Below, piece by piece: positions 3,099 through 6,434 of a DNA stretch of 16,724 nt. The DNA is from a virus (taxonomy: Duplodnaviria; Heunggongvirae; Uroviricota; Caudoviricetes). How positions within the stretch are numbered: position 1 is the stretch's first letter; the number at the start of each line of letters is the position of its first letter. The notes under the pieces are model-generated. The model worked only from the letters and a program-made list of their open reading frames with translations, was not told where the DNA came from and made no database searches. The DNA is taken from the IMG/VR virus record IMGVR_UViG_2671180460_000005; one strand, given 5' to 3'. The position numbers and the translations under genes were made by a program.

Positions 3099-3421
3099 CG
3101 CGGGAGATGCAGTTTGTGATGCAGCTTGCCCGTGAGTTCCGGCGGGCAGACTGGCGGCGGATGTTATCAGAAATGTCAGCGTCAGAACTGGGCGAATGGG
3201 GGGATTTCTTCCGGAAGCAGAGTTTCGGGGATATCTGGCTGGATGCACAGATTTCCACACTGAAGTCGCTGATGGTTCAGATGGTGTCCGGTGAACGTAT
3301 TCCGGCGGATGATTTCAGTCTGGTTACGGATGACAGGGTGATCCCTGAACGCACGGATGAAGAGCTGATGCATCTGGGGGAAGGTATATCGGGAGGAATG
3401 AGATTTGGACCAGATTGCTGA
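2709..3421 (+). CDS. T: G-T fusion tail assembly chaperone made by programmed -1 ribosomal frameshift near the end of G (exact joint uncertain)
   Basis: The T-frame ORF (ORF track 3107-3421) is in the -1 frame relative to G and has no start codon with its own ribosome-binding site. The -1 frame is open from 3068, after TGA at 3065-3067, and the G stop is at 3096-3098, so the shift must occur within 3068-3095. The T-frame product contains the ...RRMLSEMSASELGEW... block I recall from lambda gpT. Confidence 0.7.
3086..3092 (+). other. Candidate -1 slippery site for the G-T frameshift
   Basis: The zero frame reads CCG GAA AAG TCC TGA; the -1 frame reads GGA AAA GTC. The only A-run in the permitted window is GGAAAAG, which would allow tRNA-Lys to re-pair from AAG to AAA. 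It is not a canonical X_XXY_YYZ heptamer. Confidence 0.4.
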
Positions 3422-6400
3422 CCTTGTCATTGATTTAAGCATTGATACCGCCGATTTTAAAGAGCAGCTTCCGCGTGTAAAAAATCTGCTGAATGGTACA
3501 GCAAGGGAGGCGGAGCGGGCCGAAGCCCGTATGAAACGGTTTGAGGAAAGTCAGAAACAGGCTGCCAGCGCGACGGTGATACAGACTCAGGCCGTGGTGA
3601 AGCATGCGCAGGGGCATGTTTCGCTGGCGGAAGATGTGGAAAGGGCGCGCCTGCGGATGGAGGCCCTGAGTCGTCAGATGCGGGAGGAGCAGGTTCAGGC
3701 GGCTGCGCTGGCTGCGGCGCAGGATAAGATGGCTGCCGCATTTTATCGTCAGATCGACAGCGTAAAACAGGCCAGTGCGGGGCTGCAGGAGTTACAGCGT
3801 ATTCAGCAGCAGATCCGACAGGCCAGAAACAGTGGCGGGATTGCTCAGCAGGATTATCTGGCCCTGATTTCTGAGGTGACAGCGAAAACCCGCGTTCTGA
3901 CACAGGCAGAGGAAACGGCCACCCGCCAGAAAACCGCATTTATTCGTCAGCTGAAAGAACAGACAAGTCGCCAGAAAATGACCACGACGGAACTGCTTCG
4001 GGCAAAGGCGGCACAACTTGGGTGCAGCAGTGCCGCGGAGGTGTACATCCGTAAAATGGAGAAAGCCGGAAACACCACACATTCGCTGGGACTGAAAAGT
4101 GCGGCAGCCCGTCGGGAGCTGGGGGTCATGATTGGTGAGCTGGCGCGAGGTAATTTCGGTGCGCTTCGTGGCTCCGGGATCACCCTGGCTAACCGTGCCG
4201 GCTGGATTGATAAATTAATGACTCCGAAAGGCCTGGCGGTGGGGGGAGTTATCGGAGGGATCACTGCTGCGGTTATTGGTCTGGGTAAAGCCTGGATGGA
4301 GGGGCAGGAAGAAGGCGAAGCCTTTAACCGGCAGCTTGAGCTCACCGGACACTATGCCGGTGTGACAGCCGGGCAGTTGTGGGCGCTCAGTAAAAATCTT
4401 TCCGGTAATGGCATCACGCAACATGCCATGGCGGGGGCACTGGCGCAGGTAGTGGGGAGCGGTGCATTTCACGGTAACGATATTGGTATGGTGGCGAAAG
4501 CTGCCGCACAGATGGAACGCGCGGTAGGGCAGTCTGTCAGTGACACCATCAGTCAGTTTAAACGGCTGAAGGATGATCCGGTCAGTGCTGCGAAGGCGCT
4601 GGATGATGAACTGCATTTTCTGACAGCCACCCAGCTTGAACAGATCCGTGTGCTCGGAGAGCAGGGGCGCACCAGTGACGCCGCCCGGATAGCCATGTCT
4701 GCACTGGCAGAGGAAACCGGTAAACGTACGTCGGATATTGATAATAACCTCAATGCGCTGGGCAGTACGCTGCAAACCTTGTCTGACTGGTGGAAGCAGT
4801 TCTGGGATGCGGCCATGAACATTGGTCGGGAAGATTCCCTTGATGCGCAGATTGCGTCGCTGCAGGAAAAAATTCAGCGGGCGAAGAAATTTCCGTGGAC
4901 TAAGGCGTCCACCACGGGGGAATACGATCAGCAACAACTGGATGCGCTGCAAGAGCGAAAACGCCAGCAGGATTTGCAGGATGCAAAAGAGCAGGCTGAG
5001 CGAAATTATCAGGAGCAGCAGAAACGCCGGAATGCTGAAAATGCCGCGCTGAACCGGATGAACGAAACGGAAGCAGCACGACATCAGCATGAAATTGCGC
5101 GTATTAATGCCATGCAGTACGCCGATCAGGCGGTCAGGGACGCAGCGATACAGCGTGAAAATGAACGTTACGAAAAAGCCATTAAGAAAAAAACGCCTGC
5201 CACCCGTAATGATGAGGCCACCCGGCTATTACTGCAGTACAGCCAGCAACAGGCGCAGGTGGAGGGACAGATTGCCGCCGCCAGACAGTCAGCGGGCATG
5301 GCTACTGAAAGGATGACAGAAGCGCATAAACAGCTTCTGGCCCTTCAGCAGCGTATCAGCGATTTGGCCGGTAAAAAACTGACAGCAGATGAAAAAAGTG
5401 TGCTGGCTCACAAGGATGAGCTGATTCAGGCACTGACGTTGCTGGATGCAAAACAGCAGGAGCTGCAGAAGCAGACTGTCCTCAATGACCTGAAGAAAAA
5501 ATCCATTCAGCTTGCCAGCCAGCTGGCGGAAGAGGAGCGCGCTCTGCGTCAGCAACATGACCTGGATATCGCCACGACAGGGATGGGGGATAAACAGCGT
5601 CAGCGATACCAGGCACAGTTCAGTCTGCAACAAAAATATCAGCAGCAGATGGAACAGCTGGAGCGTGACAGTAAGCAGAAAGGAACATACGGCACAGATG
5701 AATACCGGAATGCTGAGCAGACGCTGACAGACAGTCTGAACCGGCAACTGAACGAAAACAGACGCTACTGGCAGGAACAGGAACTGATGCAGGCAGACTG
5801 GAAAAACGGTGCCATGCGGGCGTTTCAGCATTTTACAGAGGATGCGGATAACGCGGCGGGTACCGCTGAGCAGTTGTTTAATACCGCGTTCAGCAGCATG
5901 GGCAACGGGCTGGCGACGTTCTGCACGACAGGTAAACTGAATTTCAAATCTTTTACCTCATCCGTGCTGTCAGATATGGCGAAAATTCTGGCGCAGGCAA
6001 CCATGATGAAGGCTGTCAAGGGCGTTGGTAGTGCACTGGGGCTAGGTTCTGTTCTCGACAGTCTTTCCCTTAATGCCAGTGGTGGTGTTTATCAGTCTGC
6101 TGATTTGAGTCGCTACAGTGGCACGGTGGTTAACCGTCCGACGTTTTTTGCTTTTGCAAAAGGCGCGGGGGTGATGGGTGAAGCGGGGCCTGAGGCTATC
6201 CTGCCCTTGCGCAGGGGGGCTGACGGTAAGCTGGGTGTTGTGGCAGCGACCTGTGGTTCGGGGATGGTGATGTTTGCGCCGCAGTACAACATCGAGATCA
6301 ATAACGATGGTCAGAACGGGCAGATTGGGCCGGAAGCCATGCAGGCGGTTTACAACCTGGGGAAAAGGGCTGCAGCAGATTTTATGCAACAACAGTCCCG

Positions 6401-6434
6401 TGATGGCGGGCAGTTAAGCGGAGTATACCGGTGA
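3405..6434 (+). CDS. H: Tail tape measure protein, lambda gpH-like, 1009 aa
   Basis: N-terminus DQIADLVIDLSIDTADFKEQ parallels lambda gpH (GDLVVDLSLDAARFDEQ). C-terminus INNDGQNGQIGPEAMQAVYNLGKRAAADFMQQQSRDGGQLSG parallels the lambda H C-terminus. Long Q/E/R-rich coiled-coil centre and a Gly-rich hydrophobic segment (about 4218-4300). Start appears to be TTG at 3405, 8 nt after GGGAGG (3391-3396); the next in-frame ATG is 42 codons downstream, after the conserved N-terminal block. Confidence 0.93.
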   Translation: MDQIADLVIDLSIDTADFKEQLPRVKNLLNGTAREAERAEARMKRFEESQKQAASATVIQTQAVVKHAQGHVSLAEDVERARLRMEALSRQMREEQVQAAALAAAQDKMAAAFYRQIDSVKQASAGLQELQRIQQQIRQARNSGGIAQQDYLALISEVTAKTRVLTQAEETATRQKTAFIRQLKEQTSRQKMTTTELLRAKAAQLGCSSAAEVYIRKMEKAGNTTHSLGLKSAAARRELGVMIGELARGNFGALRGSGITLANRAGWIDKLMTPKGLAVGGVIGGITAAVIGLGKAWMEGQEEGEAFNRQLELTGHYAGVTAGQLWALSKNLSGNGITQHAMAGALAQVVGSGAFHGNDIGMVAKAAAQMERAVGQSVSDTISQFKRLKDDPVSAAKALDDELHFLTATQLEQIRVLGEQGRTSDAARIAMSALAEETGKRTSDIDNNLNALGSTLQTLSDWWKQFWDAAMNIGREDSLDAQIASLQEKIQRAKKFPWTKASTTGEYDQQQLDALQERKRQQDLQDAKEQAERNYQEQQKRRNAENAALNRMNETEAARHQHEIARINAMQYADQAVRDAAIQRENERYEKAIKKKTPATRNDEATRLLLQYSQQQAQVEGQIAAARQSAGMATERMTEAHKQLLALQQRISDLAGKKLTADEKSVLAHKDELIQALTLLDAKQQELQKQTVLNDLKKKSIQLASQLAEEERALRQQHDLDIATTGMGDKQRQRYQAQFSLQQKYQQQMEQLERDSKQKGTYGTDEYRNAEQTLTDSLNRQLNENRRYWQEQELMQADWKNGAMRAFQHFTEDADNAAGTAEQLFNTAFSSMGNGLATFCTTGKLNFKSFTSSVLSDMAKILAQATMMKAVKGVGSALGLGSVLDSLSLNASGGVYQSADLSRYSGTVVNRPTFFAFAKGAGVMGEAGPEAILPLRRGADGKLGVVAATCGSGMVMFAPQYNIEINNDGQNGQIGPEAMQAVYNLGKRAAADFMQQQSRDGGQLSGVYR

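Follow-up and report, generated by a model that had tools for sequence, protein, structure and literature searches.

Alignment Places the Extra Length of a Lambda-Type Phage Tape Measure Protein in an N-Terminal Arm

Organization of the Locus

The window analyzed here, a 16,724-nucleotide stretch of Caudoviricetes DNA (IMG/VR record IMGVR_UViG_2671180460_000005), contains a tape measure gene that sits in a complete Z-U-V-G-T-H-M-L-K-I-J tail module. Pfam matches for V, G, T, M, L, K, I, and J occur in that order around the gene, and the RefSeq annotation of the E. coli C5 prophage, which is 96.6% identical, shows the same arrangement and adds Z and U. The features are collected in Table 1. Across 243 aligned aa without a gap, the tail tube protein V and lambda gpV are 56% identical; the tube subunit has the same size as in lambda, and V sets the ring height for the tail-length estimate. 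A G-T frameshift is likely at the slippery site G_GAA_AAG (3086-3092), as judged from the sequence; GGAAAAG is also present in mEp460 and phi80, and lambda has GGGAAAG.

Table 1. Features of the tape measure gene and its upstream neighbors (positions refer to the window)
Feature	Position	Strand	Basis or remark
Tail tube protein V, 246 aa	1912..2652	+	Pfam Phage_TTP_12 and Big_2
Tail assembly chaperone G, 129 aa	2709..3098	+	Pfam Phage_TAC_2; start matches RefSeq homologue
T frame, -1 relative to G	3068..3421	+	Pfam Phage_tail_T; frame analysis
Shine-Dalgarno sequence GGAGG	3392..3396	+	8 nt 5' of TTG start
Tape measure gene (lambda H homologue), 1009 aa	3405..6434	+	Pfam TMP_2, TMP_4, Tape_meas_lam_C; PHROG 24
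N-terminal cap, aa 1-41, DLVIDLSID motif	3405..3527	+	Match to lambda gpH; invariant columns in alignment A1
N-terminal arm, aa 42-216	3528..4052	+	BLASTP, HMMER, Pfam anchors, composition
TMP_2 domain (PF06791), aa 217-415	4053..4649	+	Pfam E = 1.9e-47, 162 bits vs cutoff 30.2
Gly-rich hydrophobic transmembrane-like segment, aa 271-300, within TMP_2	4215..4304	+	Kyte-Doolittle; lambda alignment
Central Q/E/R/K-rich helical region, aa 416-797, with TMP_4 at aa 602-682	4650..5795	+	Pfam, composition
Tape_meas_lam_C (PF09718), aa 798-871	5796..6017	+	Pfam E = 2.3e-23
C-terminal part, aa 872-1009	6018..6431	+	Gly/Ser-rich linker and terminal helix

The tape measure reading frame starts with TTG and ends with TGA. 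Its product falls into PHROG 24, "tail length tape measure protein", with E = 2e-300, and is 100% identical to the E. coli protein P0001 at NCBI, where the same 1009-aa product had already been deposited. The identification as a tape measure, first made in a sequence-only reading of this DNA, is upheld by the TMP_2, TMP_4, and Tape_meas_lam_C domains together with the tail-gene synteny. Four antisense open reading frames within the gene (4215-5090, 5289-5831, 3457-3939, and 3947-4345) gave zero Pfam matches, and promoter-like sites occur at chance level; they were rejected as composition artefacts.

Domain Layout of the Protein

The N-terminal cap is shared with lambda gpH: BLASTP aligns aa 2-41 with lambda 3-42 at 43% identity, and HMMER pairs window residues 3-55 with lambda 4-56. 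The lambda counterparts of TMP_2 and Tape_meas_lam_C lie at aa 54-256 and 627-701, respectively. The Gly-rich hydrophobic segment that had been pointed out at about nt 4218-4300 is real, with a Kyte-Doolittle 19-residue maximum of 1.87. It pairs with lambda 110-140 in BLASTP, and residues 116-140 of lambda gpH are the favored transmembrane prediction (PMC12617516). Being the homologue of lambda 116-140, it is a conserved family feature and does not set the window protein apart. At infection, when the tape measure would be ejected, this segment may help to build a trans-envelope conduit, as proposed for lambda.

The earlier description of a Q/E/R-rich coiled-coil region stands in part. The region exists, with Q/E/R/K making up 42% of aa 482-799, and the stretch quoted from it, QQQLDALQERKRQQ..., starts at aa 509. 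As to a coiled coil as such, heptad or hydrophobic periodicity, assessed by Fourier analysis of hydropathy, is not significant against shuffled sequences. A single-sequence AF2 model of the whole protein is mostly helical, in line with a composition that favors helix; it was run without an alignment, has a mean pLDDT of 46.9, and was used for a rough picture of secondary structure only.

Toward the C-terminus, the Gly/Ser-rich linker (aa ~866-895) is the place where variants of 1007, 1009, and 1010 aa differ, and lambda gpH has a comparable linker at ~690-720; such a linker bears on a putative proteolytic processing of H to H* plus HC. Residues 974-1004 match the 32-aa lambda tape measure fragment of 9e7m in HMMER, and aa 976-998 are helical in the AF2 model. 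In lambda, residues 818-842 of gpH form a helix seated on the gpI plug (PMC10721106). The homologous position of aa 974-1004, together with the presence of an I homologue, marks this stretch as a probable C-terminal helix docking on the gpI plug.

Location of the Additional Length

Lambda H (NC_001416, 10542..13103) encodes 853 aa, so that the window protein is longer by 156 aa, or 18.3%, which bears out the excess of about 18% previously given. Measured between Pfam anchors, the part preceding TMP_2 comprises 216 aa in the window protein and 53 aa in lambda (+163), compared with 227 aa in mEp460 and 228 aa in phi80. The remaining segments differ little: TMP_2 spans 199 vs 204 aa, the central segment 381 vs 369 aa (an excess of merely 11-12 aa), lam_C 75 aa in both proteins, and the C-terminal tail 138 vs 152 aa (-14). 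In BLASTP, window residue 281 stands opposite lambda residue 113, which places the net excess upstream of aa 281, and the second HMMER stretch aligns window 283-1006 with lambda 123-850 (724 vs 728 residues). In all three approaches, the N-terminal cap and TMP_2 are about +161 to +168 aa farther apart than in lambda. By these alignments, the excess over lambda gpH is essentially all N-terminal arm, with every other segment within about 15 residues of its lambda counterpart.

This location differs from that of the sequence-only reading, which had assigned the extra length to an expanded central Q/E/R-rich coiled-coil region at nt 4850-5800. The lambda alignment moves it to aa ~42-216 (nt 3528-4052). 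Although the central region is present and rich in Q/E/R/K, and many small gaps break up its low-identity alignment with lambda, its near-equal length in the two proteins and the position of the net excess in BLASTP, Pfam-anchor, and HMMER comparisons refute a central expansion, which is left with hardly any probability. Equally improbable is an over-extended reading frame with a true start downstream and a lambda-sized product: TTG is indeed a rare start codon, but it stands in exact register with the ATG of mEp460, phi80, and lambda H, each preceded by the same GGAGG, conservation with the lambda N-terminus extends over the first 41 residues, the arm is kept at the protein level across phages, and the 1009-aa product is also the one given in the NCBI entries.

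The N-Terminal Arm and Its Distribution

The arm (175 aa) contains no Pro, five Gly, and 38% Q/E/R/K. It appears helix-prone and is helical in the AF2 model, yet its pLDDT there is low, so that a helical state is weakly suggested. Its hydropathy spectrum peaks at 3.50 residues, a power matched by 20% of shuffles. An origin by internal duplication was rejected, the best internal BLASTP match scoring 22.7 bits vs 17.5 +/- 2.4 (maximum 25.4) for shuffled sequences.

A tblastn search with aa 42-216 matched 38 phage records, including phi80, Gifsy-1/2, Fels-1, and mEp460, and gave no match in lambda. Arm identity amounts to 72-73% for mEp460 and cdtI, 57-63% for Fels-1 and Gifsy, and 47-49% for phi80 and mEp043. 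Among complete E. coli genomes, the arm DNA was matched in 1840 of 5426. The presence of a homologous arm of ~165-230 aa between cap and TMP_2 places the window protein in the long-arm subclass of the phi80/mEp460/Gifsy type. Taken together, the product of 3405..6434 is very probably a lambda-type (gpH family) tape measure of an E. coli lambdoid prophage, of the long N-terminal arm class that includes mEp460, cdtI, Gifsy-1/2, Fels-1, and phi80, with the arm as its 156-aa excess over lambda gpH.

In a family sample of 92 representatives, which is tilted toward similar arms because it was drawn from the top 150 matches to the window tape measure, the median length is 981 aa, the interquartile range is 102-221 aa for the arm and 373-395 aa for the central region, and the arm contributes 8682 of a total variance of 12505. 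Lambda's 853-aa gpH lies at the short end of the family; the long form is commoner and the window gene is typical, which makes lambda a poor yardstick.

Tail Length

By analogy with lambda, the tape measure would be anchored by its C-terminus in the tip complex (J/I/L/K/M) and coated by G and the G-T frameshift product; V hexamers would polymerize around it up to its N-terminal end, and U would then cap the tube. Under this ruler mechanism, an added arm should add tube rings. The lambda tube is built of 32 rings, each rising ~42 Å (PMC10721106, PMC8718954). A tail longer than lambda's is plausible on this basis, with an estimated 35-38 rings and a tube of ~147-160 nm, vs 32 rings and ~134 nm.

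The only other ring count in the lambda-type family is that of T1, whose tube has ~34 rings, an approximate figure, with a rise of ~42 Å (PMC11945409). Since the T1 tape measure exceeds lambda's by 104 residues and carries a 193-aa arm for about 2 more rings, the scaling may be well below 1.5 Å per residue, which suggests that the tail lengthens less than proportionally to the tape measure, in contrast to the proportional lengthening predicted in the sequence-only reading. The same T1 figures (957-aa tape measure; ~34 vs 32 rings; PMC11945409, PMC10721106) would also fit an arm that is not part of the ruler but folds back, sits in the neck, binds chaperones, or acts only after ejection, for example in a longer trans-envelope conduit, leaving a tail equal to lambda's or slightly longer. 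An N-terminal role in injection is likewise hinted at by lambda gpH*, whose N-terminal segment has tentatively been placed in the outer membrane once ejection has occurred (PMC12617516). However, the T1 figure is qualified as "approximately", and T1 builds its tube from a protein unlike lambda's; the arm is helix-prone and free of Pro or Gly-rich breaks; and most of the length variation in the family falls in it, as expected of a ruler module. Furthermore, in TP901-1, as summarized in PMC5099701, duplication of an N-terminal region produced tails ~30% longer, a lengthening in proportion. An arm outside the ruler is accordingly considered unlikely, although it is the strongest of the alternatives, and the ruler role is preferred.

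A literature search for published tail lengths of mEp460, cdtI, Ayreon, Tritos, phi458, phi80/Lula, and Gifsy found none, and the phi458 paper describes its phage merely as "long-tailed". Tails of phi80 are reportedly longer than those of lambda, with the determinant mapping to gene H; this background was not used as evidence.

A more general proposal can be made tentatively, with somewhat less than even confidence: the evolution of lambda-type tape measures may have adjusted tail length almost exclusively through the arm between cap and TMP_2, while the central region stayed at ~380 +/- 12 residues. The arm would then serve as a free "ruler extension", exchanged as a module by recombination, which the mosaic relationships among window, phi80, and lambda fit, and its scaling might be sub-proportional, as in T1. 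The constancy of the central region would suggest constraint by a second job, such as the dimensions of the trans-envelope DNA conduit seen for lambda gpH*.

The locus itself is of little consequence, as its protein has identical counterparts among deposited E. coli prophage proteins and the family is well studied. What the analysis does provide is a correction: lambda gpH, with its 853 aa, is the short outlier, and a single N-terminal module, not the central helical region, accounts for the length difference. For engineering or predicting tail length in lambda-like phages, the arm is the natural target.

Comparison with Known Tape Measures

Lambda gpH (PDB 8iyk, 8k35, 9e7m) shares with the window protein the cap, TMP_2 with its hydrophobic segment, a central region of similar length, lam_C, and the C-terminal helix, and its gene has the same flanking genes. 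It differs in being without the ~165-aa arm and in an overall identity of 24%. Between lam_C and the terminal helix, the window protein has a GEAGPEAILPL-type motif, whereas lambda has GKYEPAGIVHRGEFVF.

The T1 tape measure gp38 (PDB 9l9p) is homologous over window aa 37-875 at 23% identity. T1 is, however, virulent, and its tube protein is unlike lambda's (gp41, 222 aa, disulfide-linked rings). The comparison of lambda with T1 cautions that 1.5 Å per residue may overstate the effect of the arm on tail length.

The long layout is not new: it has been known since phi80, whose protein (YP_007947940, 1045 aa) carries a long arm at the same position and is 51.5% identical to the window protein over aa 3-475 (local BLASTP). 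Relative to lambda it has +173 aa, placed at the same junction as the excess of the window protein. Its C-terminal half, in contrast, is 39% identical to lambda and only ~23% to the window protein. The different identities of the N- and C-terminal parts imply two halves with different histories, that is, a gene mosaic.

The closest relatives are the tape measures of mEp460, cdtI, Ayreon, Tritos, and phi458. Compared with these mEp460-type phages, the first ~240 nt of the tape measure gene have diverged beyond the reach of megablast. The mEp460 protein (1021 aa) is 81% identical to the window tape measure from end to end; a deletion at aa ~55, along with small indels, leaves the window protein 12 aa short of it. 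All five share with the window the domain order, the N-terminal arm (72-73%), and the gene neighborhood.

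Identity of the tape measure gene

The gene described here encodes a homologue of lambda gpH. PHROG 24 ('tail length tape measure protein') spans aa 1-1008 (E=2e-300), and the neighbouring V, G, T, M, L, K, I and J genes carry Pfam matches and follow the lambda order. The start codon lies exactly at the position of the H ATG in mEp460, phi80 and lambda, with GGAGG 7-8 nt upstream in all four sequences; residues 1-41 (DLVIDLSID...) can be aligned with the N-terminal end of lambda gpH, so this start is sound. The E. coli C5 prophage adjoining ssrA is 96.6% identical to the entire 16.7-kb window, and RefSeq annotates the same genes there, Z and U homologues included. 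Furthermore, the window protein matches at every residue an E. coli protein deposited at NCBI under the name 'phage tail tape measure protein'; it is of a common, already known kind. Within the gene, antisense ORFs gave no Pfam match, promoter-like and terminator-like sites occur only at chance level, and no break in base composition marks the boundaries of the N-terminal arm, the block between the N-terminal cap and the TMP_2 domain.

Features of the window, with segment lengths (aa) compared with lambda gpH
Feature	Position	Strand	Window	Lambda	Difference	Basis
Tape measure ORF, TTG start	3405-6434	+	1009			
N-terminal arm	~aa 42-216 (nt 3528-4052)					
Before TMP_2			216	53	+163	Pfam/HMM anchors
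TMP_2	aa 217-415		199	204	-5	Pfam, E=2e-47; Pfam/HMM anchors
TMP_2 to lam_C			381	369	+12	Pfam/HMM anchors
TMP_4	aa 602-682					Pfam
Tape_meas_lam_C	aa 798-871					Pfam
lam_C			75	75	0	Pfam/HMM anchors
C-tail			138	152	-14	Pfam/HMM anchors
Hydrophobic segment, LMTPKGLAVGGVIGGITAAVIGLGKAWMEG	aa 271-300 (nt 4215-4304)					Kyte-Doolittle
Gly/Ser-rich linker	aa 874-893 (6024-6083)					
V-G hairpin	2671-2688, T-run to ~2697					
Likely G-T -1 frameshift site	3086-3092					
K homologue	7401-8219					Pfam
Genes 3' of J	12285-15875					

Location of the additional length

Lambda H (NC_001416 10542..13103) encodes 853 aa, so that the excess of about 18 percent reported in the sequence-only reading holds (+156 aa, 18.3%). 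Its placement within the central stretch rich in Q/E/R (nt 4850-5800) does not, since three independent alignments with lambda disagree with it. BLASTP pairs window residues 281-1006 with lambda 113-850 and 2-41 with 3-42, while HMMER against PDB chain 8iyk_H gives 3-55 to 4-56 as one stretch and 283-1006 to 123-850 as the other. Together with the segment anchors, these alignments assign the net excess to the arm. The central region is real, with 42% Q/E/R/K, and is as long as in lambda within the anchor difference.

The hydrophobic segment, previously noted as Gly-rich at about 4218-4300, is indeed present, with a 19-residue Kyte-Doolittle maximum of 1.87. It pairs in BLASTP with lambda 110-140, where residues 116-140 are the favoured transmembrane prediction and have tentatively been assigned to the outer membrane, within the gpH* trans-envelope channel (PMC12617516). 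The segment is a conserved part of TMP_2 and no peculiarity of this phage.

Composition and family distribution of the arm

Of the arm's 175 residues, none is proline, only 5 are glycine and 38% are Q/E/R/K, a composition similar to that of the central region. A single-sequence AlphaFold2 model (helices 18-142, 148-189 and 194-220; mean pLDDT 46.9) hints that it may be helical. Hydropathy periodicity peaks at 3.50 residues and is not significant against shuffles, and consequently no coiled coil is claimed. Duplication within the window protein or of lambda H was rejected as the origin of the arm, the best match (22.7 bits) falling below the shuffle maximum (25.4).

When 1.84 billion cluster representatives were scanned in full with HMMER, 6342 proteins matched at E<=1e-10. 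Statistics were drawn from the 92 with both anchor domains complete among the best 150, a sample of best matches to the query that is biased toward proteins with a similar arm. Median lengths (interquartile range) are 981 aa (918-1039) in total, 154 aa (102-221) for the arm, 383 aa (373-395) for the central region and 154 aa (147-162) for the C-tail, most of the length variance coming from the arm (8682/12505). Arm DNA has matches, mostly partial and 80-90% identical, in 1840 of 5426 complete E. coli genomes. Judged by these figures, the window protein is typical, with lambda gpH at the short end.

Among 120 listed near-identical E. coli tape measures, 86 have 1007 aa, 32 have 1009 and two have 1010; the indels and a substitution cluster all lie in the Gly/Ser-rich linker, which is the counterpart of the Gly-rich stretch close to where lambda H is cleaved to H*.

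Tail assembly and predicted tail length

As described in PMC10721106, PMC8718954 and PMC12617516 (citing Katsura 1987 and Xu et al. 2014), the lambda gpI plug in the tip carries the gpH C-terminal helix (residues 818-842), gpH is the core for gpV hexamer polymerisation, tube growth ends when gpH is fully covered, gpU then caps the tube, and gpH is cleaved to gpH*. A lambda-like tail would be assembled in the same way around the window protein: all partner genes are in the window, and the C-terminal helix is kept (aa 974-1004 match PDB 9e7m). V, the tail tube protein (246 aa), aligns with gpV at 56% identity and with no gaps; a ring height of ~42-43 A, like that of lambda, is therefore expected.

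The lambda tail is built of 32 rings (PMC10721106). T1, the only further member of the family whose rings have been counted, has 'approximately 34' at ~42 A rise (PMC11945409), with a 957-aa tape measure and a 193-aa arm. Four scalings from these two phages predict 37-38 rings (alpha-helix, 1.5 A per residue, 156 aa being +5.6 rings), 37.9 (lambda's 26.7 aa per ring), 35.8 (T1's 28.1 aa per ring) and 35.0 (two-point lambda-T1 slope). The tail is thus estimated at 35-38 rings, with a tube 9-18% longer than lambda's. That N-terminal sequence would count as ruler is supported by TP901-1, in which doubling the N-terminal region gave tails ~30% longer (PMC5099701). No published tail length was found for this prophage or close relatives. 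A tail longer than lambda's seems a reasonable expectation in direction, with possibly sub-proportional scaling.

Neighbouring genes

The listed V ORF (1837-2652, 271 aa) begins at GTG; gpV homology and the RefSeq annotation place the start at ATG 1912. The V-G gap holds a strong hairpin resembling a terminator, with 6 G-C pairs out of 7 and TTTTTGTTT after it; mEp460 has an annotated rho-independent terminator at this position. The hairpin may set the ratio of V to G/T/H expression. G starts at ATG 2709; its mechanical ORF runs upstream through the hairpin (ATG 2679). The likely frameshift site is G_GAA_AAG, versus lambda's G_GGA_AAG, with the G stop at 3096-3098 and the T frame open from 3068; GGAAAAG also stands before the stop codon of G in mEp460 and phi80. 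Because the P-site codon would mis-pair after slippage, the slip may take place in the A site (Lys AAG to AAA).

The K homologue has both JAB/MPN and NlpC/P60 domains; its mechanical ORF uses an upstream GTG and overlaps L, and RefSeq gives a shorter 744-nt form (C40 peptidase). J is followed downstream by lom, a gene for a side tail fibre of 776 aa and a tail fibre assembly gene. E. coli C5, the closest complete genome (L003 15287-20913), has a second fibre gene and a DUF4376 gene ahead of ssrA. A recombination boundary within the fibre assembly gene is suggested by the loss of identity to most other genomes near 15857.

Comparison with other phages

With the arm as tblastn query, tape measures were matched in mEp460, cdtI, Ayreon, Tritos and phi458 (72-73% identity), in Fels-1 and Gifsy-1/2 (57-63%) and in phi80, mEp043 and mEp213 (47-49%); lambda gave no match. 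The arm is a module common to the tape measures of several phages. The phi80 protein (1045 aa) aligns with lambda at 1-59 to 1-59 and 279-1039 to 106-848, so the classic difference between phi80 and lambda amounts to +173 aa and falls at the junction also seen in the window. The phi80 protein is 51.5% identical to the window protein over aa 3-475 by local BLASTP, but only ~23% in the C-terminal half, where it shares 39% with lambda. These contrasting identities indicate different histories for the arm-bearing and C-terminal halves, and the gene is a mosaic (3405-4830 versus 4830-6434) of the pattern usual in lambdoid phages. Downstream of lam_C, the window has a GEAGPEAILPL-type motif, whereas lambda and phi80 have GKYEPAGIVHRGEFVF.
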